Sequence record: MH791400.1
DNA from: Escherichia phage EcSzw-2
Reading direction: 5' to 3' (one strand)
DNA: 64,000 bases
Below, in pieces: positions 1-47,363 of the stretch. Positions within the stretch are counted from its first letter, which is position 1. Every line of letters begins with the position of its first letter. The position numbers and the translations under genes are program-made. The notes below the pieces were generated by a model. It searched no databases, had not been told where the DNA came from, and saw only the letters and a program-made list of their open reading frames with translations.

Positions 1-50
1 AACATCCTCTTAAAAGCTCTGTATAGCTCTGTATAGCCTCTTTTAAGCCC
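1..50. repeat. ~50-bp direct repeat, copy 1 (copy 2 at ~3641-3690); contains internal tandem GCTCTGTATA x2
   Basis: aacatcctcttaaaagctctgtatagctctgtatagcctcttttaagcc recurs essentially identically at ~3641-3690. Confidence 0.8.
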
Positions 51-99
51 CTTGTAAGGTAACTATAGCCCAAGTAACTGTAAAGGGCTTTACAGGGCT

Positions 100-240
100 T
101 TATAGGGGCTTTAAAGGGTATGCCAAGTTGACTAACAAGGATTTAACAAGGTCTTAACAATGATTTAACATACCCCTAACAAGGGTAACTATGCAGGAGT
201 TGTTAAGAATTTGTTAAGAAAATGTTAAGGGGGCTAGCAT
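100..240. repeat. array of TAACAAG / CTTAACA heptamers in direct then inverted orientation (candidate protein-binding array)
   Basis: taacaag at ~134,147,175 plus ttaacaa/ttaacat variants; inverted copies tgttaag x3 at ~200-235; far above chance for a 7-mer. Confidence 0.6.
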
Positions 241-719
241 TTACGTAACTTTTAAGCCACTTTTAAGCAACTTTATAGCCCCTATAACATACTTTTANNN
301 AGACAATAACAAGCCCTTTTTAGTAGTTCACAAGGGACTAACGAGATGATAAAGCTTGATACCTTATAAGATTCTTTTAAGGCCATAGAAAGCTCTATAA
401 ATGGCTTTTAAGAGTGGGTTAATATGATTGCTTAAGTTAGGTTGATAAGCTGTTATAGGGCTTTATAGAGCGTTTTAGAGGGTTGCCCTCCCCTTTGGGT
501 TATGGGCTTATATTTAAGTTGATTTGATAAGATGATATAGAGTAAGCTATAGAGTTATTATTTTTAAGGTCTGGTAAGATTCTCTAAGAGTCTGCATAGG
601 GATTGCATAGACGTAAAAAAGCCCCTATGAGATAGATTCTATGAAGGTAATTCATTACCTGAATNAGAAAGGGGCTGTTAAGGTATCTGGGGCTATTTTA
701 GCCCCGTTGCGGCGTCTCG

Positions 720-968
720 TTAGTTATGACCGTCCTTGTCATAGTAAAGAGAAATGATTTTATCGTTCCAATAGTGCCAATGATTACCATCTTTCACCGC
801 CTCTTGGATAGCTGCAATCCAAAAATCCGATTCAGGGTTATAATCCTTGACAATCTGGCTAACAAGGCTTTTCACCATATCAAAAGCACTATCTGTACTG
901 ATAATGTCAAATTTAACATCCAGTGAGTAAAAACCATATTCGTTAACAGTTGCGCGGATAGTTGCCAT
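720..968 (-). CDS. hypothetical early protein (82 aa)
   Basis: ORF directly preceded by conserved promoter/leader cassette ending ...CCTAAACTGGAGAaTCAAAG-ATG. Confidence 0.65.
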   Translation of the reverse strand: MATIRATVNEYGFYSLDVKFDIISTDSAFDMVKSLVSQIVKDYNPESDFWIAAIQEAVKDGNHWHYWNDKIISLYYDKDGHN

Positions 969-1055
969 CTTTGATTCTCCAGTTTAGGATTGATTTGGTA
1001 AAGCTCTTTATCTGGGGCTTATACTATCGAACTATAAACCCCTTGTAAAGCACTT
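969..1055 (-). promoter_or_regulatory. early promoter + conserved leader/RBS cassette, type A (TTTACA-N17-TAGTAT, GGAG RBS)
   Basis: On minus strand: TTTACA (~1044-1049), 17-bp spacer, TAGTAT (~1021-1026), then leader aagccccagataaagag...cctaaactggag; inverted repeat ggggtttata/tataagcccc brackets the -10. Confidence 0.6.
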
Positions 1056-1253
1056 TTAATACATTTTATCGAATAACTGGTTTATTGCAGCAACTGCATG
1101 ATTTTTAAAGTTTAAGTTGTTAGTGTTATCAGAAAACACTACTTCAGTGTTGTAAGTGATTTCTAGTGATACAAACGAACCATTTACATTTAAAGAATAG
1201 GATACACCTTTTAAGCACCACAAGGTAGACAGCTTTTGCATTAAATCTTTCAT
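1056..1253 (-). CDS. hypothetical early protein (65 aa)
   Basis: ORF preceded by type B promoter/leader cassette with GGAG RBS. Confidence 0.6.
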   Translation of the reverse strand: MKDLMQKLSTLWCLKGVSYSLNVNGSFVSLEITYNTEVVFSDNTNNLNFKNHAVAAINQLFDKMY

Positions 1254-1330
1254 CTTGAATCTCCAGTTTAGGAAGTAAGCTTGATTGCTTGATAGATACT
1301 ATAGGGCTTTTAGAAAGTGATTGCAAGCCC
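1254..1330 (-). promoter_or_regulatory. early promoter + leader cassette, type B (TTGCAA-N17-TATAGT)
   Basis: Minus strand: TTGCAA (~1321-1326), 17 bp, TATAGT (~1298-1303), leader ...cttcctaaactggagattcaag-ATG; promoter spacer can form hairpin agggctt/aagccct. Confidence 0.55.
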
Positions 1331-1454
1331 TTTTTAGTCTTATCTATAAAGAATCTTTTAAGTGATTCCTTTTAGATAAAACCCCCTCGAACAAATGTAC
1401 TATTGTCAAGGGGTATCGTCAAGTAATTTTTGAAAGTTTTTTGTAAGTTGTTGA

Positions 1455-1796
1455 TTAACTTATAAAGATTTTTTCAGGCTTGACGTAGTTCATTTTTTGG
1501 CCTTTAAGTAAATCACTCCAGATTAAAGCGGCAATGTGACCATAACCGGATTCACGTAGCGCTTTCATCGTGTTGACTTTTGTTTCAAATCGTGTTGCGT
1601 AGTATTCACTGTTAAGGGTTGTTTTGTTCCCTTCATTGTCTGTATGAATGATTTGCATCACATGAAACGGGCTAACATCCTCTCCGAGATTCCATTGCTC
1701 AAAGTATTTTAAACACTGCATAGGCGACATATTATCACTGACTCGTGTAGACCATGATGAATTTTCTTTATCGGTAATTACGGTTACATGTGCCAT
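1455..1796 (-). CDS. hypothetical early protein (113 aa)
   Basis: ORF with upstream conserved cassette and GGAG RBS. Confidence 0.65.
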   Translation of the reverse strand: MAHVTVITDKENSSWSTRVSDNMSPMQCLKYFEQWNLGEDVSPFHVMQIIHTDNEGNKTTLNSEYYATRFETKVNTMKALRESGYGHIAALIWSDLLKGQKMNYVKPEKIFIS

Positions 1797-1870
1797 CTTT
1801 GAATCTCCAGTTTAGGAAAGCTCTTTATCTGGGGCTTATGGTATCAAGCTTTTAAGCCCCTTGTANTTGT
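1797..1870 (-). promoter_or_regulatory. early promoter + leader cassette, type A variant (ambiguous base at 1866 in the -35 region)
   Basis: Conserved leader aagccccagataaagagctttcctaaactggagattcaa; -10-like TACCAT; hairpin-capable ggggcttat...ataagcccc. Confidence 0.5.
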
Positions 1871-2099
1871 AAATCTCTAAAAATTCATCTTCATTAACAT
1901 TTTCGTAGTATTCTGCGTTTTCGTCTTCACCTTGTAAGACATAGCAGCCCATTCTAGACGATTTCGGGTATTCTTGTCTAGCAATATTGCAAGCTTCTAC
2001 CGCGTTTTGTTTAGTTCCTTCAAAGGATTCTAAAACCCCATAATGGCAATTATTAGCCCCAGAGCATACAGCAAGCATGAGATAGATTGTAGTTAACAT
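1836..2099 (-). CDS. hypothetical protein with N-terminal hydrophobic signal-like segment (87 aa; 3' end reads through the downstream promoter cassette and the ambiguous base)
   Basis: ORF; N-terminus MLTTIYLMLAVCSGANNC is signal-peptide-like; no own cassette, probably co-transcribed with the upstream 185-aa gene. Confidence 0.45.
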   Translation of the reverse strand: MLTTIYLMLAVCSGANNCHYGVLESFEGTKQNAVEACNIARQEYPKSSRMGCYVLQGEDENAEYYENVNEDEFLEIYXYKGLKSLIP

Positions 2100-2162
2100 G
2101 ATTTAAGCCCCTTGCAAGCCCCTATGCGGGGCTTTTTAATGTTGTTAGTGTGATTGTATGGT

Positions 2163-2720
2163 TTACGCTAAAACGTCGTTTACAGTGCTTTCTGTTAAGC
2201 TTTCCTGCATTGCGTCTAGCATGTTGCAATAGATAATTGAACTATCATCAGTATTTTGAATAAAGCTTGCAACTTCTTCAAGTTTTTCATCAACATAGCC
2301 TAAATTTGGATTTTTTAAGTTAGGTACAAAAAACGGTGAATACATAGAGTTAAATTCTGTGATGTAAACCTTTTTAATCCAATCTTTATCAAAAGATTCT
2401 GTAAAGCTTGCGATATCACTCATATTTTCACAAGACCAATCATCTTGCAATTCATATTCTGGAATGTCAAGTTCTAAGATAACAATATTTTGGGTTTTCA
2501 TCTGAAAAGCTGCTGTGATTGTAGCACTATCAAGAGCATTGCGTAAACCTTCATTAGTAATTTCTTCAGCATTCATAGAATCAAGGTCATAGAATTTATT
2601 AACAGGGTAAACGTAAAAACAACCATCACTATCAGAGCAATTCCAAGCGCCTGATGGTTTATCACCGCCATTGATGAGGTTTACAAAGTTTTCTTGAGTA
2701 GTACCGTGAAAGCATTTCAT
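2163..2720 (-). CDS. hypothetical early protein (185 aa)
   Basis: ORF preceded by conserved leader/RBS (promoter part diverged or truncated; n at 2773). Confidence 0.65.
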   Translation of the reverse strand: MKCFHGTTQENFVNLINGGDKPSGAWNCSDSDGCFYVYPVNKFYDLDSMNAEEITNEGLRNALDSATITAAFQMKTQNIVILELDIPEYELQDDWSCENMSDIASFTESFDKDWIKKVYITEFNSMYSPFFVPNLKNPNLGYVDEKLEEVASFIQNTDDSSIIYCNMLDAMQESLTESTVNDVLA

Positions 2721-2775
2721 TTTGAATCTCCAGTTTAGGATTGATTTGGTAAATCTCTTTATCTGGGGCTATNAA
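2721..2775 (-). promoter_or_regulatory. conserved leader/RBS cassette (type A, truncated promoter part)
   Basis: ttgaatctccagtttaggattgatttggtaaatctctttatctggggctat matches the other cassettes. Confidence 0.5.
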
Positions 2776-2849
2776 ATTTGGATTCACTCCGTTCATCTTG
2801 GGTCACCATATCATGTGATAAAATATCTACCCTTCTTAACAGCCTACTT

Positions 2850-3010
2850 AATCTTACTCTCTATATATATATAGTTATATAGTACTATATAGTATCTTAG
2901 TCCCTTAACAGTGAGTCTCTATAGCCCTCTGTATAACCCTTCTATAAAGCCCTATAAGCATCCCTCTTCCAAACCTATACAATCACCTTAACCATCTCTT
3001 CATAGCCCCT
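2850..3010. repeat. phased (~10-11 bp) CTATA(G/A) / TATATAG short repeats in noncoding AT-rich DNA
   Basis: ctatatatatatagttatatagtactatatagtatc...ctctatagccctctgtataacccttctataaagccctataagc; helical-period spacing suggests intrinsic bending. Confidence 0.5.
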
Positions 3011-3349
3011 TAGAAGCCCCTATACCCATCTTAATCTCTATGTCAGAGATAGTACCCTCTATAGGGTGTTCACTAGGTTCTACTAATCCTCTNGTTGTTC
3101 TTAAGAATCAACCTCTTAGGCTTATCCTACAAGGTCTAACACGTTATTAACAAGGTATCTTATAAGCCTGTATTTACCTGTTTTATACAGAATACTATAT
3201 AGATATTTATGCAATTCTTAAAATTTTTATAAAATAGAACTGTCAAGTCATTTTTTAGGGTCTTGAGAGCAACTCAAAAATATCTGTTTAGGATGTATAT
3301 CTGCTTGGTAGCCCTTAACAGCCTTGTAACATACCCTTTGCAAAATTTT

Positions 3350-3600
3350 AAAATATCATTAACAAATTCTTAACAACTCTATCAATCTCTTAACATCTCT
3401 TCAAAGGTCTTAACAGATTCTTAACAGGACTAACAAGGGTGTAACAGTTATTTAACAAGTGCTACATAGTCTTTACAGAATCTTAACAGATGACTAACAA
3501 GAGCTAACAAGTTAATTTTAAAGGGTTATTTTGTTAAGATAATTAACAAGTTCCTAACAAGTGTTTAATCCTTTTAACAAGCTGTTAACATGGTCACTAT
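3350..3600. repeat. dense array of (C)TTAACA(A/G)(G) repeats, ~15 copies, ~11-22 bp spacing
   Basis: tcttaacaactc, tcttaacatctc, gtcttaacagattcttaacaggactaacaagggtgtaacag...tttaacaagtg...gactaacaagagctaacaag...ttaacaagttcctaacaagtg...tttaacaagctgttaacatgg. Confidence 0.7.
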
Positions 3601-3640
3601 CTCTTCTCTTCTCGTTCCCTTAACTTCTCAGTGAATCTCT

Positions 3641-3690
3641 AAACATCCTCTTAAAAGCTCTGTATAGCTCTGTATAGCCTCTTTTAAGCC
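3641..3690. repeat. ~50-bp direct repeat, copy 2 (matches window positions 1-50)
   Basis: aaacatcctcttaaaagctctgtatagctctgtatagcctcttttaagcc. Confidence 0.8.
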
Positions 3691-3935
3691 NTAGTTTTCT
3701 TTGAGAAAATTAGTTTAACTGCAACCGTGGGAAGTTCTTCAATACTTGTAAAAAGCGTTACCTTTTGAGTAACAACCTTGTAACCATTTTTTGCAGCGTA
3801 TGCCGTGAAACGATTAACCGTATAACTATAAGTTTTTGATGTGTTGTCTGACATATGGTACAAATAGGGCTTGCCTAAATTTTGAGATTGTGTTAACAGT
3901 CGGCAAGTATCAGGAACGTTTAAATAATTAAGCAT
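3684..3935 (-). CDS. hypothetical early protein (83 aa; 3' end overlaps repeat copy 2 and ambiguous base 3691)
   Basis: ORF preceded by type B promoter/leader cassette. Confidence 0.55.
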   Translation of the reverse strand: MLNYLNVPDTCRLLTQSQNLGKPYLYHMSDNTSKTYSYTVNRFTAYAAKNGYKVVTQKVTLFTSIEELPTVAVKLIFSKKTXA

Positions 3936-40653: not shown

Positions 40654-40715
40654 TTAATGTTGACAGGGTGCTCATGGAAGAGTACCTTATGCAACATATC
40701 GTATAGGAGAACTCT

Positions 40716-41541: not shown

Positions 41542-42642
41542 ATGACAATTCTGTACAAACAAAACAAAGATGGCTCTTTTAACGTCTGGTCATGCGTTGC
41601 CGTAGGTGACAAAGTTGTTACCACGTATGGTAAAGAAAATGGCAAGATGATGTTTGAAGAGTACACAGCAGAACCGAAAAACATCGGTAAAAAGAATGAG
41701 CGTAATGCTGAACAGCAAGCTCTCTTTGAAGTTGCTGCTAAGTATAAGAAGCAGGTTGACCGTAAAGGTTATGCTTACACAAAATCTGAAGCAGAGAACA
41801 CTGAAAAGGTTGGTGTACAACTCGCACAAGATGCTGCAAAGGTAAGTCATGCAAAGTATTTGAAGTTCCCTGCTGATGCTCAACCTAAGCTTGATGGTGT
41901 TCGTTGCCGTATATCAAGAGACACGGACTCAGTGAACTTCACAGCTTATTCCCGTGAAAATACTGTGTACAACGTACCTGAAGAGTTGATTCCAGACTTG
42001 CTGCTGATGATTAAATGCCACCCACAAGTTCAAGATTTTGATGGTGAAATCTATGCTCACGGATGGGATTTAGAAGATATTGTATCTATGATTAAGAATG
42101 CTGACAATCCAGACCGTCACCTACTTAAATTCTACTGGTATGATATCTGCGACAAAACTAAAACTTGGCCTGAGCGTCGTGAAATCATTGATAACTCGCC
42201 AATTGTTGAACTCGGTGATGCTTGCAGGGTTGTACCTGTTCAAACTATCCGTGTTAACTCTTGGGAAGAGTTTGACAAAGCCCATGATAATTGGGTTAAG
42301 CTGAAGTTTGAAGGGGCAATGTACCGTTCCATCTCAGCAGATTCTTTCTATGAGTGTGGTCACCGTTCATACTTCCTGATTAAGCATAAGAAGATGCACA
42401 CGGAAGAATTTAAAGTAACTGGTGTGAAAACTGATAAGCGTGGTCATGGTAAATTCGTTGTAGAGACACTCCCTAACGTCTTTGTGGATGTTTCATGGAA
42501 AACTACCCATGAGAAGAAACAGTATCTTGCTGAACACCCTGAAGAGTTTATCGGGAAACCTTTGACGGTTCAGTTCCAGAAGATGACTCGTAAGGGGTCT
42601 TTGCAGTTCCCTGTTGGTCTCGTTATACGAGATTATGAATAA
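41542..42642 (+). CDS. ATP-dependent DNA ligase
   Basis: Adenylation motif I PKLDGVRC (KxDG); ~366 aa; GAGG RBS before ATG 41542. Confidence 0.8.
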   Translation: MTILYKQNKDGSFNVWSCVAVGDKVVTTYGKENGKMMFEEYTAEPKNIGKKNERNAEQQALFEVAAKYKKQVDRKGYAYTKSEAENTEKVGVQLAQDAAKVSHAKYLKFPADAQPKLDGVRCRISRDTDSVNFTAYSRENTVYNVPEELIPDLLLMIKCHPQVQDFDGEIYAHGWDLEDIVSMIKNADNPDRHLLKFYWYDICDKTKTWPERREIIDNSPIVELGDACRVVPVQTIRVNSWEEFDKAHDNWVKLKFEGAMYRSISADSFYECGHRSYFLIKHKKMHTEEFKVTGVKTDKRGHGKFVVETLPNVFVDVSWKTTHEKKQYLAEHPEEFIGKPLTVQFQKMTRKGSLQFPVGLVIRDYE

Positions 42643-42648
42643 AAGTTG

Positions 42649-42708
42649 TTGACATACACTCTCCGGTAGTTATACTAGCAATATAAAATTTGATATAGGA
42701 ACTACCGG
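42649..42708 (+). promoter_or_regulatory. sigma70-like promoter (TTGACA-N16-TATACT) with 9-bp perfect inverted repeat CCGGTAGTT/AACTACCGG bracketing the -10 and start site (candidate operator)
   Basis: ttgacatacactctccggtagttatactagcaatataaaatttgatataggaactaccgg, then AGGAG RBS and ATG at 42727. Confidence 0.6.
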
Positions 42709-42726
42709 ATGAGTTAGGAGAAGAAA

Positions 42727-43107
42727 ATGAAAAAGGTTATGGTAAGTGTCATTCTGGCAACTCTGAGTTTTGGTGCATCAGCTATGACGATGCCTGAAGC
42801 AGACTTTAGTAAGGTCTCTATAGAGGCTTGTCAGATTGTTCGTAAAGTCGTAACAGATGCTGGAGAGTTGACTAAACCGTTATCTTCTCCAACCGTCATG
42901 GAAATGTCTGACCGTATCACTGACTACAATTATCGTGTGATGGCAGATTACTACGAAGCTGTTTCTGATGCTATGGTCACTCAAGACATTGACTTGCTTG
43001 ATGACAAAGACATTGAGAAGGTTGAAGATACCAAACGTGGAATGATGGATGAAACTTTCAAAGGTGTTCATTATTTTGTTGAAAAGCGTACTTGTGTAGG
43101 TCTATGA
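42727..43107 (+). CDS. secreted/periplasmic protein (126 aa, cleavable signal peptide)
   Basis: MKKVMVSVILATLSFGASAMT signal peptide. Confidence 0.6.
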   Translation: MKKVMVSVILATLSFGASAMTMPEADFSKVSIEACQIVRKVVTDAGELTKPLSSPTVMEMSDRITDYNYRVMADYYEAVSDAMVTQDIDLLDDKDIEKVEDTKRGMMDETFKGVHYFVEKRTCVGL

Positions 43108-43108
43108 T

Positions 43109-43312
43109 ATGAAGAAGAATCATTGCAAGAAGAACTATGGAGAAGTGCTTGACGACGAAGGTCATGTCATCTTCCGAGTTTACTGTGCAGATGACTCTGA
43201 AGTAGGTAAAGCACTTGATGACTATATCAATGGTACTCGTGAAAACGTCAGAGCAACAAACATAGATTCATTGATTGACACTTCCAGAAAACGGAGGAAG
43301 AAGGATGAATGA
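43109..43312 (+). CDS. hypothetical protein (67 aa)
   Basis: ORF. Confidence 0.45.
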   Translation: MKKNHCKKNYGEVLDDEGHVIFRVYCADDSEVGKALDDYINGTRENVRATNIDSLIDTSRKRRKKDE

Positions 43313-43604
43313 AGTCTTTGACCCTTACGCCCCACAAGATAAGTGGGAAGCTGATAGAGAGTATGAGATGGAAAGTTATATCTGTCCAATGGATGTAGAC
43401 GAAATGAGAGAGTTCGTTGCATTCCGTTTTGAAAAAGAAATTGAGAAAAGAAAACTTTCTCAGGCACAAGTTGCAAAAATTTGTGATATCTCTCAAAGTC
43501 GTGTTTCCAACATTGTCAATGGTACTGGAAAGATTACCCTTGAATACATGTTGAAAGCTTGTGAAAAACTTGGTGTTAACTTCAACTTAAGGCTGTCAGA
43601 TTAA
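43305..43604 (+). CDS. HTH (XRE-like) DNA-binding regulator
   Basis: KLSQAQVAKICDISQSRVSNIVNG helix-turn-helix; GGAGGAAG RBS before internal ATG. Confidence 0.6.
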   Translation: MNEVFDPYAPQDKWEADREYEMESYICPMDVDEMREFVAFRFEKEIEKRKLSQAQVAKICDISQSRVSNIVNGTGKITLEYMLKACEKLGVNFNLRLSD

Positions 43605-43605
43605 T

Positions 43606-43965
43606 ATGAAACGTGAAAATGCAATCATCAAAGGTAACTTCGCAATTGGCTTCTATGGTAAACCTACTGAAGCTGAAAAGGTGTGGGGTCATGAGATTCT
43701 TGAAGAGATGATTCCAAAACTCCAAAAAGGAGAAATTAAGCATTCTGAAAAGAATCGTGTGAAAGGCTATATGGCAATTGGTTCAGCTATATCCAACATC
43801 AAACTTGAGACGACATGTGCAAAAGATGTTCGTAACTCGTTTATCAAGGAACTCTTCAACAACCTTGATGGTGTAGATGCTACCGCTATCTGGCTTGATG
43901 TTGATGGTGCTAAGTATACAACTTTCGTATTTAAAAATGAGGATATCAAATGTCTCTTCCCGTAA
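43606..43965 (+). CDS. hypothetical protein (119 aa)
   Basis: ORF. Confidence 0.5.
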   Translation: MKRENAIIKGNFAIGFYGKPTEAEKVWGHEILEEMIPKLQKGEIKHSEKNRVKGYMAIGSAISNIKLETTCAKDVRNSFIKELFNNLDGVDATAIWLDVDGAKYTTFVFKNEDIKCLFP

Positions 43966-44450
43966 AAATTGACTTGTTCTTTGGATACAATCTGATGACA
44001 GGGTGTATGCTTAGTCTTCCAAAGTCTCCTTATCGTACTGAGAAGGGTGCTGTGAAACGTGCTGCACACTACAATAATGACTTAGGTCGTTTGCAGACGA
44101 TTTACAAGTGGCTTGAAGAAGATGGTCGAGTAAATGAGTACTTCCATCAGCTTCGTATGGCTAACGAAGAAAATAAGATGGGCTATGAACTGTTCCCACG
44201 TCTTTACAAAGTGACTTCACCAACTTCTCAAACTTGGAATGAGAAATCTATTGAGGGTTACAAAAAGGTCACAATGTCTCCGTTTAGTAGTGGTGCAGAG
44301 TTTGAGAAGCTACGTGAGATAATTTATCAGACTGTTGCAAAGCGTGTTGCAAAGGGTCTTTCTTATAATGAAAAGATTGACTGGAACACTCAAAAGGTTA
44401 TACAATTCTTTGCATACGATAATGACAAACAAACTTTTGTAGAGGTTTAA
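43950..44450 (+). CDS. hypothetical protein (166 aa)
   Basis: ORF. Confidence 0.5.
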   Translation: MSLPVKIDLFFGYNLMTGCMLSLPKSPYRTEKGAVKRAAHYNNDLGRLQTIYKWLEEDGRVNEYFHQLRMANEENKMGYELFPRLYKVTSPTSQTWNEKSIEGYKKVTMSPFSSGAEFEKLREIIYQTVAKRVAKGLSYNEKIDWNTQKVIQFFAYDNDKQTFVEV

Positions 44451-44451
44451 C

Positions 44452-44970
44452 ATGAAGATTGGAAACAGCTTAACAGAGCCAGAAGCAATTCTGCTTAAGG
44501 GTGTTATCAAAGAACATCTTAAAAATCGTAGACTTCAAGAGGGCACAATCCTTATTGAGACAAACTACGAAGCTGGAACGATTGAGTTTCTTGACGAAGA
44601 TACTGGTGATGCACTTTGCCTTTTGCCAACTCACCTCTTCACTACTGAGTTTCGAGATTCTAAATCAATCTCTGTGAAGCTGGTTCCAAGCATTGAGTTG
44701 TATGAAGGTATGCAATACCCACGTAGCTTCAAAGCTTTACTTAACATCTTCATAGATGATATTGTAGATTTAGTAAGGCCAGAAGCTGGTGAGTATGTAA
44801 TCACTGCTGAGTGTCAGAATAGCAGCTACATCACTCTTGCTGGCAATCTTTCAACGATGAACTTCTTAGATTTCATTCCGAAACACTTTGAAGACTTCCT
44901 TTCATCGTGTGGTGATGACCTTGATTTCATTGTAAAATTGGAACAAGAATATAAGGTGAATAAGAAATGA
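44452..44970 (+). CDS. hypothetical protein (172 aa)
   Basis: ORF. Confidence 0.5.
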   Translation: MKIGNSLTEPEAILLKGVIKEHLKNRRLQEGTILIETNYEAGTIEFLDEDTGDALCLLPTHLFTTEFRDSKSISVKLVPSIELYEGMQYPRSFKALLNIFIDDIVDLVRPEAGEYVITAECQNSSYITLAGNLSTMNFLDFIPKHFEDFLSSCGDDLDFIVKLEQEYKVNKK

Positions 44971-45236
44971 AAATCTTTAAAGTTGAACACTGTTACATGC
45001 AGAGTGGTGAGCCAATTCGTTGTCCTCATTGTGGTTGTACAGATTTTCAAGGTGAGGTTACAGATATCGTCTCTGGTCATGTAGCAGAAGAGTATACTCG
45101 TTGCCGTGGATGTATGAAGATTGTTTCATTTTGGGCTTACGGAAGTTATGAGCCACATCCACATGTTATTTATCATCCAGTAAAAGTTGTTAAGAATATC
45201 ATCAACTGGCTTATTATTAAAGGGTTTTTCAAATGA
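44967..45236 (+). CDS. small zinc-ribbon protein (89 aa)
   Basis: CPHCGC...CRGC. Confidence 0.5.
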   Translation: MKIFKVEHCYMQSGEPIRCPHCGCTDFQGEVTDIVSGHVAEEYTRCRGCMKIVSFWAYGSYEPHPHVIYHPVKVVKNIINWLIIKGFFK

Positions 45237-45778
45237 TTCGTTTAGTGTTTGCAAGTGGTCGTAAAGGTGAGTTTGGCACTCCTGATGGGATGCCTTGGGA
45301 ACGTAACCGTGAAGACATGAAAGAGTTTAAAAAGCTGACTCAAAACCAGCTTGTAATCATGGGTAATGAGACTTTCAAGACTCTTGGACGTAAACCTTTA
45401 CCAAATCGTGAGAACATGATTCTGTCAAACAACCTCCCATATTACGGGATAGACTTTGATAATGACGGTTTTGTTATTGCGAAAGCTGACCCAGATTCTT
45501 TCGGTGCATTCTTGAAGAAAATTGACAGCCAGATTGATGAAAATGTCTGTGTGATTGGTGGTGCAAACATCTTAAAAGCAGCTTTACCATTTGCTGATGA
45601 AGTTTACCACACAGTTATCTATGAAATTACTAAAGAGCCAACTGTGTATCTTCCTGAAGAGGGTTTCTTTGAGTATTTACATGAGCCTGAACTCTTTGCT
45701 AGAATACAAGCTAAACCTCTGGATGATAAATCTGGAGTGGTAAACTTCTATGTTCCACAAGTAAGAGGACGATTCTGA
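45233..45778 (+). CDS. frd: dihydrofolate reductase
   Basis: MIRLVFASGRKGEFGTPDGMPW... and downstream VIGGANI; immediately upstream of thyA. Confidence 0.8.
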   Translation: MIRLVFASGRKGEFGTPDGMPWERNREDMKEFKKLTQNQLVIMGNETFKTLGRKPLPNRENMILSNNLPYYGIDFDNDGFVIAKADPDSFGAFLKKIDSQIDENVCVIGGANILKAALPFADEVYHTVIYEITKEPTVYLPEEGFFEYLHEPELFARIQAKPLDDKSGVVNFYVPQVRGRF

Positions 45779-45779
45779 T

Positions 45780-46676
45780 ATGTCACAAGCAGATGTAAGT
45801 TATAAAAATATCCTGAACCACGTTTTGACAGTTGGTGAGCAGCGTAAAACCCGAACTGGTTCTGTAATTTCAACGTTCTCGCCTCCAGAGTTTCGTTTTG
45901 ATATGCGTACTGGTTTCCCTTTACTGACGTCTAAACAGGTTCTGACCAGACAAGTTATAGGGGAAGCTTTATGGTTCTTGAATGGTGAGAATAAACTTGG
46001 TCATCTTCGCTATCGTACTTGGGGAGAAAACGATGGGGAGCGTTGGACAATCTGGACAAATGATTTTGAACGTTGGCTTAAAACAACATATGCAAGCGAG
46101 CAAGATTGGCTAGATGATGCAGGTGGACGTATCTACGGTGTACAGTGGAGAGCCTCAGAAGGTCATGGTGGCGTTACAGTTGACCAGCTAGACAATCTGA
46201 TTACCAAGATGAAAAAGTCTCCTACAGACCGTTACATGCTGGTTAATGCTTGGAATGCTGCTGATATCTCAGCTAATGCAATGGCTTTACCACCTTGTCA
46301 TGTGCTTTTCCAGATTTACATCTCAAATACTGGTGAAGTTGATTTAAAATGGTATCAACGTTCTGTAGACAGCTTCTTAGGTTTACCGTTTAACATTGCG
46401 TCTTATGGTTTTATCTTGGAAGTGCTTTGTAAGATGACTGGATACACGCCTCGTTATCTGATTGGTACTTTGGGTGATACTCAGATTTATCAGAACCATA
46501 TGAATCAGGTATTCCAGCTTTTAGGTAATGAAGAGTTTCCTGCACCAAAGTTTGAGATTGTTCAAGATTTGAAATGTCTGGATGACCTCAAACATATGAC
46601 TGCAAGTGACTTTATCGGCGGTTTCAAAGACTATCGACATGCAGGGAAGATTGAAGCTCCCTTGTCAGTAGGTTGA
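45780..46676 (+). CDS. thyA: thymidylate synthase (ThyA type)
   Basis: ...RTGFPLLTSKQV... and active-site ...MALPPCHVLFQIY... Confidence 0.9.
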   Translation: MSQADVSYKNILNHVLTVGEQRKTRTGSVISTFSPPEFRFDMRTGFPLLTSKQVLTRQVIGEALWFLNGENKLGHLRYRTWGENDGERWTIWTNDFERWLKTTYASEQDWLDDAGGRIYGVQWRASEGHGGVTVDQLDNLITKMKKSPTDRYMLVNAWNAADISANAMALPPCHVLFQIYISNTGEVDLKWYQRSVDSFLGLPFNIASYGFILEVLCKMTGYTPRYLIGTLGDTQIYQNHMNQVFQLLGNEEFPAPKFEIVQDLKCLDDLKHMTASDFIGGFKDYRHAGKIEAPLSVG

Positions 46677-46683
46677 TAGATAC

Positions 46684-46710
46684 AAAAAAGGCTCCTTTTT
46701 ACGGGAGCCT
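46684..46710. terminator. bidirectional rho-independent terminator at convergent junction
   Basis: aaaaaaggctcc-tttttac-gggagcc between thyA (+) and the minus-strand structural block. Confidence 0.7.
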
Positions 46711-46715
46711 TAAAC

Positions 46716-47284: not shown

Positions 47285-47363
47285 TATATCACCTCATCAG
47301 CCAAGATGGTGAGAATACCTATGAAAATATTAACACCATCTTAACAATTAGTCAACAAATTGA

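Follow-up and report, generated by a model that had tools for sequence, protein, structure and literature searches.

The inverted repeat that encloses an internal promoter of Escherichia phage EcSzw-2 (MH791400.1) can fold into a stem that, judging from sequence comparison, is under selection for base pairing and not for sequence. The promoter lies in the 84-bp gap between the stop codon of the DNA ligase gene (42642) and the ATG of the next gene (42727), which encodes a 126-aa exported protein. The DNA analysed is a stretch of 64,000 nucleotides, here called the window, to which all positions refer unless another locus is named; over 42000-44000 it matches Escherichia phage EcSzw_1 (MH791413.1; Ounavirinae, genus Suspvirus) with 100% identity. 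The covarying, promoter-enclosing stem is well supported, and no description of it was found in the literature searched. That it serves to handle messenger RNA reading through from the ligase gene is an even call, for which the start site, RNA as the folding molecule and the function of the hairpin are all deduced from the DNA. The parts of the element are as follows.

42649-42654, + strand: -35 hexamer TTGACA, invariant in 15 related promoters
42658-42671, + strand: 5' arm of the stem, with the core TCCGGTAGTT (42662-42671) and the extension ACTC (42658-42661), in the promoter spacer and upstream of the predicted start
42671-42676, + strand: -10 hexamer TATACT after a 16-nt spacer, invariant in relatives; the 5' arm extends inward to its first T
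42679-42700, + strand: conserved AT-rich element CAATATAAAATTTGATATAGGA in the loop, with a near-palindrome at 42681-42696, covering the predicted +1 to about +18
42700-42714, + strand: 3' arm of the stem, with the core AACTACCGGA (42700-42709), a bulged T (42710) and the extension GAGT (42711-42714)
42716-42720, + strand: Shine-Dalgarno sequence AGGAG of the 126-aa gene

The initial annotation had described a near-consensus promoter TTGACA-N16-TATACT embedded in a 9-bp perfect inverted repeat over the -10 hexamer and the start site. The promoter is borne out at 42649-42676, where it matches the consensus at 11 of 12 positions and is the top match within 36-50 kb, and the repeat is present at the position described, although its length is 10 bp, with the two halves 28 nt apart. 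Folded as a single strand, the repeat extends to 14 bp with a 1-nt bulge. As RNA, the stem has a minimum free energy of -21.9 kcal/mol (z = -5.9), and none of 200 shuffled sequences folds as well. The z-scores range from -5.9 to -7.3 for EcSzw_1, Sf13, HP1 and Mordin, and are about -2.7 for L108 and for P1, a related promoter found directly after the ligase gene in other genomes. The loop contains the predicted start (about 42683) and the first ~17 transcribed nucleotides, and the 3' arm, at about +18 to +32 relative to that start, stops one base short of the Shine-Dalgarno sequence.

Neither the promoter match nor the inverted repeat is significant alone in 64 kb. Promoter matches of at least 11/12 number 4 in the window versus 2.0 ± 1.7 in shuffles, and a count of perfect inverted repeats, taken at ≥9 bp with loops no longer than 60 nt, gives 19 versus about 14 expected. 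The two are judged real because of their position in the intergenic gap and because of the comparative data. The hexamer spacing falls within the 16-18 bp of sigma-70-type promoters, both hexamers are constant across the 15 related promoters while the spacer varies, as expected for that type, and the homologous site in AYO145A is annotated as a promoter.

The gene order is shared by about 260 Ounavirinae genomes. In the genomes with a single promoter directly before the 126-aa gene, the hexamers and the AT-rich block after the -10 hexamer are invariant or nearly so. The promoter is accompanied by a repeat of 8-10 bp in a constant register, in which the last base of the 5' arm (about -22 to -12 throughout the lineages) coincides with the first T of the -10 hexamer and the 3' arm starts 28-31 nt later; the loop measures 24-31 nt across lineages. 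The conservation of the palindrome in relatives, on which the initial annotation had made its operator depend, fails at the level of sequence: the arms have been replaced in at least five lineages and only the pairing is kept. At least five unrelated arm pairs share the one register, namely TCCGGTAGTT/AACTACCGGA in the Suspvirus phages EcSzw_1, mistaenkt, PC79-13 and CHB7, (T/C)CTGACGGGT/ACCCGTCAG(A/G) in the Mooglevirus phages HP1, Sf16, Mordin, Henu12 and Michonne, TAGTGGGT/ACCCACTA in L108 and ESh21, CATAGCAAGT/ACTTGCTATG in Sf13, and CCTAGTAGGT/ACTTACTAGG in two Logan contigs (L152 and L154). A sixth pair, TGGTGAGTA/TACTCACCA, occurs at P1, the post-ligase promoter of Felixounavirus, SUSP1, Moogle and KPS64.

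Over nine distinct sequences of the 10-pair helix, 93.3% of cells are paired, compared with 26-42% when the partners are slid by 1-3 columns. Seven of the ten pairs are altered on both sides, the observed covariation score is attained by none of 500 shuffles, and RNAalifold recovers the identical helix unprompted. Between Sf13 and L152, two double compensatory substitutions and one internal G.U (G in the 5' arm) separate the arms. As a negative control served unrelated viral promoters matching TTGTTGACAT-N15-TATACT, taken from pattern scans of IMG/VR and metagenomes and estimated from the listing at about 95; a repeat of 8 bp or more lies near only three of them, and none carries one of 9 bp or more in the same register. 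The same scans, searched for new arm variants, returned mostly unrelated promoters or known lineages. Because complementarity has been kept through sequence turnover while the control promoters lack such repeats, selection on pairing is the reading adopted for the stem.

The genomic setting bears on what such a stem could do. Two features delimit it.

41542-42642, + strand: DNA ligase gene, the putative upstream source of read-through transcripts, with no terminator before the promoter
46688-46711, bidirectional: intrinsic terminator that closes the + strand unit, the first + strand terminator-like site downstream of 37155

A + strand block runs from the DNA polymerase gene (37954) to the thymidylate synthase gene (46676) and ends at this terminator. 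A terminator scan found no terminator-like site on the + strand between 37155 and 46688; therefore, upstream transcripts should cross the ligase gene and the element. The Felix O1 counterpart of the block is the presumed early "transcripton 96-80", and in the same source the timing of transcription in Felix O1-like phages is stated to be unknown; these phages encode neither an RNA polymerase nor any recognised sigma or anti-sigma factor (PMC3185647). The promoter is placed as an internal sigma-70-type promoter of a replication and nucleotide-metabolism transcription unit. The initial annotation had treated the three genes after the promoter as a separate module; they are instead the first three of a tightly packed operon of nine abutting or overlapping genes that the promoter heads, from the 126-aa protein through thymidylate synthase.

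In the proposed mechanism, transcripts initiated at the nested promoter would begin within the loop, lack the 5' arm and have a leader that is AU-rich and open, and read-through transcripts from the ligase gene would include the two arms and form a hairpin of 10-15 bp. The stem would form only in read-through RNA, because the 5' arm lies upstream of the predicted start. There it could act on processing, stability or translation. It may be a site of RNase III-type processing or a hairpin protecting the 3' end of the upstream message, or it may be a mild fold-back that makes the ribosome-landing region of the 126-aa gene less accessible in read-through mRNA. The arrangement in AYO145A fits a correlation of the stem with read-through: its promoter P2, which stands before the operon, is preceded by a canonical terminator (L005, 4070-4085) and has no enclosing stem, and P1, directly after the ligase gene, has one. 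In six lineages, opening the region from -35 to +12 costs 16-24 kcal/mol in the read-through RNA versus 5-11 kcal/mol in the promoter's own RNA.

Several points weigh against this role. The higher opening energy follows almost automatically from the added hairpin and is not independent proof. The 3' arm ends beside the Shine-Dalgarno sequence in every lineage, 1-8 nt upstream, and since it does not cover that sequence, inhibition by fold-back would be weak at best. The perfect Watson-Crick arms would fold no less well in single-stranded DNA or in minus-strand RNA, and the evidence for the strand is thin, with G.U and C.A cells at 3:3, although of the two kinds only G.U occurs inside the stem. 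The stems are short in L153 (7 bp) and L108 (8 bp), a scan of 42300-43000 against Rfam at E ≤ 5 gave no matching family, and the start site is a prediction from the hexamers. The combination of the stem with a weak inner AU helix resembles RNase III substrates only loosely. Literature searches returned no transcript-start or transcript-end data for Ounavirinae.

Two known systems come close to the proposed role. In IS10/Tn10, externally initiated transposase transcripts are reportedly inhibited by fold-back, as Davis, Simons and Kleckner are said to have described in 1985. The likeness lies in a promoter between inverted-repeat arms, such that only external transcripts carry both arms and the promoter's own transcripts stay open; with the predicted start, transcription at the present site would also begin between the arms. 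However, the IS10 3' arm sequesters the ribosome-binding site, whereas here neither the Shine-Dalgarno sequence nor the start codon is sequestered (the last base of the arm is 42714), and the stem would occlude no more than the ribosome-landing region upstream. The setting also differs, being a lytic-phage operon and not a transposase gene. The early mRNAs of T7-type phages carry intercistronic RNase III processing hairpins. With these the stem has in common a stable hairpin that lacks a U-run and lies between the cistrons of a long phage transcript, and a two-part helix with an internal loop, which is clearest in Mooglevirus (10 bp + 8 bp). RNase III sites comprise about two turns of double-stranded RNA, which may be interrupted; the predicted helix here has an outer part of 10-15 bp and an inner part of 3-8 bp. 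In total it is shorter than at the T7 sites, and its inner part is AU-only and variable. The T7 sites, for their part, are not known to overlap host-type promoters.

An alternative that is compatible with a separate RNA role of the stem concerns the regulator encoded in the operon, a helix-turn-helix (HTH) protein.

43305-43604, + strand: 99-aa XRE/Cro-type HTH protein, with an HTH_3 domain and an acidic N-terminal extension of ~34 aa

The HTH_3 domain is matched in Pfam (PF01381) at E = 6.5e-12, the gene has the annotated ATG and a GGAGG ribosome-binding site, and a PADLOC scan gave generic HTH matches only. It is possible, though we would not expect it, that this protein autoregulates through the AT-rich near-palindrome at 42679-42700 as a candidate operator. 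The consensus of the element, ATATAcAAAATaTkATATAGGA, is kept in all lineages including the stem-less P2 promoters, with divergent arms on either side; it overlaps the predicted start site; and an unchanging operator agrees with the nearly unchanging recognition helix. Should the HTH protein autoregulate, the inner element would be a better candidate operator than the outer dyad. On the other hand, its dyad symmetry is weak and shifts in register between lineages, and an AT-rich +1 to +20 could be kept for promoter escape or as a translational leader. A search of the window for the inner AT-rich motif and for ATATAGGA found only the site itself and no regulon signal. Knockdown data also count against this reading. 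In the transcriptome-wide CRISPRi-ART screen of SUSP1, the orthologues of the first three operon genes, gp037, gp036 and gp035, the last being the HTH gene, were all scored "Not Fit" (PMC11879866, supplementary file 16), which we read as dispensable under the screen conditions. This scoring fits accessory roles and argues against the HTH protein as an essential master regulator. As separate observations, the 147-aa cassette gene gp038 of SUSP1 (L004, 1529-1969), which has no counterpart in the window, was "Semi-Fit" in the same screen (PMC11879866). The acidic extension of the HTH protein (residues 1-34, 43305-43410; MNEVFDPYAPQD.WEADRE.EME.Y..MD..EM) is conserved more strongly than the HTH scaffold, and the protein gives a weak HigA2-antitoxin-like match. 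The extension suggests a putative role in protein-protein interaction besides DNA binding.

Less probable is an action of the stem at the DNA level, as a single-stranded hairpin or a cruciform that modulates the promoter or promotes the recombination of cassettes; we consider it unlikely. The arms can fold on either strand, and the locus, at which at least four architectures occur (described below), is a hotspot of indels. However, on general knowledge a loop of 28-31 nt makes the extrusion of a cruciform from duplex DNA unlikely. In addition, the internal G.U of L152 and L154 pairs on the + strand only and would be an A.C mismatch on the opposite strand (G.T in DNA) that a cruciform has to tolerate, which argues against one. 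Recombination by homology would favour conserved arms and not variable ones. Stem-loops beside promoters have nevertheless been proposed as recombination sites in T4-like phages (PMC2839356), where they form promoter-early stem-loop (PeSL) cassettes (Arbiol et al. 2010, PMC2839356; Comeau et al. 2014, PMC4122927).

The element resembles PeSLs in that both are compact intergenic units of a strong sigma-70-type promoter and a stem-loop at sites of gain and loss of accessory genes, and in Ounavirinae promoter-bearing ends (P1 and P2) flank the inserted cassette, as recombination between promoter cassettes predicts. In contrast, the PeSL stem-loop is a G/C-rich terminator upstream of the -35 hexamer, whereas the Ounavirinae stem encloses the -10 hexamer and the start, has a loop of 24-31 nt and is usually without a U-run. 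PeSLs are also multicopy and conserved in sequence. Here the stem is single-copy in the window, with arms that are not conserved, and the other hairpin-associated promoters in the window are unrelated to it in sequence.

That the hairpin is an intrinsic terminator or attenuator of ligase transcripts overlapping a restart promoter, in the manner of a PeSL, is very unlikely. The stem does stand directly after a gene, and its 3' arm runs into T4-T6 in Sf13, L152 and L154. Intrinsic terminators have a G/C-rich stem, a short loop and a U-run; no U-run follows the stem in EcSzw_1, Mooglevirus or P1, the loop of 24-31 nt (28 nt in EcSzw_1) is long, and the site was not called by the terminator scan.

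The operator proposed by the initial annotation, here taken to mean that the XRE-type protein occupies the outer dyad (TCCGGTAGTT / AACTACCGGA) as a dimer and so shuts off its own promoter, fares slightly worse and is likewise very unlikely. It had in its favour an HTH_3 protein encoded in the operon downstream of a promoter with dyad symmetry, as in switches of the Cro/CI type, and a dyad that spans -10 and +1, the classical position of a repressor. However, XRE/Cro operators have conserved half-sites one to two helical turns apart, and the large dyad lacks both properties: the arms are unrelated in at least five lineages, although the recognition helix SQ(S/A)RVSNI is constant across lineages bar one Ser/Ala position, and the arm centres are separated by 38 bp. 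Such a separation of half-sites is unlike the operators of XRE dimers. Only the small AT-rich inner element, whose sequence is conserved, could serve in this way. SUSP1 keeps an HTH protein that is 99% identical, yet the P2 promoter before its operon has no such dyad. The TCCGGTAGTT-type half-site has no second copy within the 64-kb window, and no local protein was found to covary with the arms: the HTH protein keeps its recognition helix apart from the Ser/Ala position, and the 67-aa protein encoded next to it keeps its basic half unchanged. Finally, that the repeat is a functionless chance feature of an AT-rich intergenic region is scarcely credible: the number of such repeats in the window is near expectation, but the complementarity survives complete sequence turnover in several lineages and the control promoters lack it.

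A second promoter within a repeat is present in the window.

47303-47355, - strand: promoter TTGACT-N17-TAATAT, with the 9-bp repeat AAGATGGTG/CACCATCTT around the -10 hexamer and +1

It lies between the tail-fibre gene and a small ORF (open reading frame) with the holin gene. Its arms are invariant in Felixounavirus and Mooglevirus as well (three genera in all) and its loop is variable, so that covariation gives no information at this tail-fibre promoter hairpin, the arms never varying. Together with hairpins in promoter spacers elsewhere, this second site at 47.3 kb is a hint that the arrangement may be a genome-wide design principle. Three further strong sigma-70-like promoters in the window are associated with hairpins. 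TTGACA-GGGGCTgaaaAGCCCC-T-TAGAAT at about 13327 (- strand) has a hairpin within the spacer; TTGACA-N16-TATTAT at about 16329 (- strand) is followed by the terminator GGCTCCtacGGGAGCC-TTTTT at about +5; and TTGACA-GGTGCTCatggaGAGTACC-TT, which follows the DNA polymerase gene at 40660-40690 (+ strand), contains a spacer hairpin that is imperfect. Elsewhere, positions 1-3700 contain dense short repeats (TAACAAG, TTGTTAAGA), two copies of AGCTCTGTAT (15-37 and 3656-3678), inverted repeats at 152-219, 392-471 and 3480-3540, and an N near 3093; this may be a regulatory or terminal-repeat region. A replication origin of the T4 oriF type was also considered and dropped, the GC skew merely tracking gene orientation.

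The site between the ligase stop and the ATG of the 126-aa gene takes at least four forms among the relatives. It may be the 84-bp gap as in the window; the same promoter with a small ORF before it, either a membrane ORF or a different one; P1 and P2 with GGT-rich repeat units between them; or P1, repeats, two genes (196 and 147 aa), a terminator, repeats and P2. P1 has the "-35 side" (AAAGTTGTTGACATA) in common with the single promoter, and P2 has the "TATACT + AT-rich" side. This sharing would be the expected leftover of recombination between promoter cassettes, as proposed for PeSLs (PMC2839356, PMC4122927). In P2 (L005, 4373-4404), the hexamer properly spaced from TTGACA is TATTTT (N17), and the conserved TATACT stands 5 nt further downstream; the "TATACT + AT-rich" block of P2 may thus be a retained leader or operator rather than a -10 hexamer. 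The -35 hexamer of P2 is enclosed by a 13-bp repeat, AAATAAGCTATAA/TTATAGCTTATTT.

Relatives carry between the ligase and 126-aa genes one to four copies of a unit of ~200 bp that is absent from the window. In each unit, two hairpins (CACTTAAGAGTCTTCTAAGAGGGTTTTTAAGTG and GGGTAGTTAGTCTCAGCTACATTAAAATGAGACT) stand on either side of ~100 bp of repeats of the GGTNN(N) type (ggtaaggtgcggtggtgtaaggtg...). It is found at L005 2640-3000 and 4090-4340, L004 760-860 and 2030-2390, and L145 830-1060, and also in L146, L148, L150, L151 and L155; it may represent iterons, a small RNA or a mobile repeat. A small Cys-rich ORF (~60 aa, ...NPGRCCPGHDKY...) lies between the ligase gene and the promoter at L004 490-670, L152 130-320 and L153 130-320, and small hydrophobic ORFs take its place in Mooglevirus and L108; these ORFs add to the variants seen at the hotspot.

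The remaining genes of the operon are as follows.

42727-43107, + strand: 126-aa exported protein with a signal peptide and a three-helix bundle; PHROG 4332
43109-43312, + strand: 67-aa protein whose basic C-terminal half is invariant; PHROG 4473
43606-46676, + strand: rest of the operon, four ORFs of unknown function followed by dihydrofolate reductase and thymidylate synthase, abutting or overlapping

The gene content given by the initial annotation, a signal-peptide protein, a 67-aa protein and an XRE-like HTH protein, agrees with these genes in every part. The N-terminus of the 126-aa protein (MKK, a hydrophobic core and ASA|M) is by sequence a Sec-type signal peptide, with predicted cleavage at ASA|M after residue 19, and Cys35 and Cys123 are invariant. 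An AlphaFold2 model (pLDDT 87.8, the predicted local distance difference test) has the signal peptide followed by a three-helix bundle. A Foldseek search with this model retrieved no significant match from PDB, and from BFVD only the orthologue of the protein itself, and no matches to characterised members were found in Pfam, PHROGs, PADLOC or PDB sequences. A search for related loci with the protein returned only SUSP1 and SUSP2. The initial annotation had suggested superinfection exclusion as one role of these genes. In these searches, the 126-aa protein showed no sequence or fold similarity to known superinfection-exclusion or periplasmic phage proteins (such as T4 Sp and Imm or T5 Llp), and the "Not Fit" scoring is neutral on the question, neither supporting nor excluding such a role. 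A Spackle-like assignment of the 126-aa protein was considered and is unsupported, the fold searches in PDB and BFVD being uninformative.

In summary, a dyad at a promoter need not be a repressor operator, and the comparison tells a helix under selection for pairing apart from the short candidate operator in its loop, which is conserved in sequence. A stem that surrounds an internal promoter and is conserved in structure but variable in sequence offers a concrete candidate for a post-transcriptional element that can be tested, and the hotspot junctions, which fall at promoters, extend the PeSL idea beyond T4-like phages. As a tentative generalisation, which we hold to be possible but doubtful, Ounavirinae may use a "promoter-in-a-stem" by which one gene has two classes of mRNA, with an open or a hairpinned leader, and no protein operator is needed. 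If this is true, the Felix O1-like phages, a group widely used in typing, biocontrol and therapy, could treat early and read-through messages differently in processing, stability or translation.

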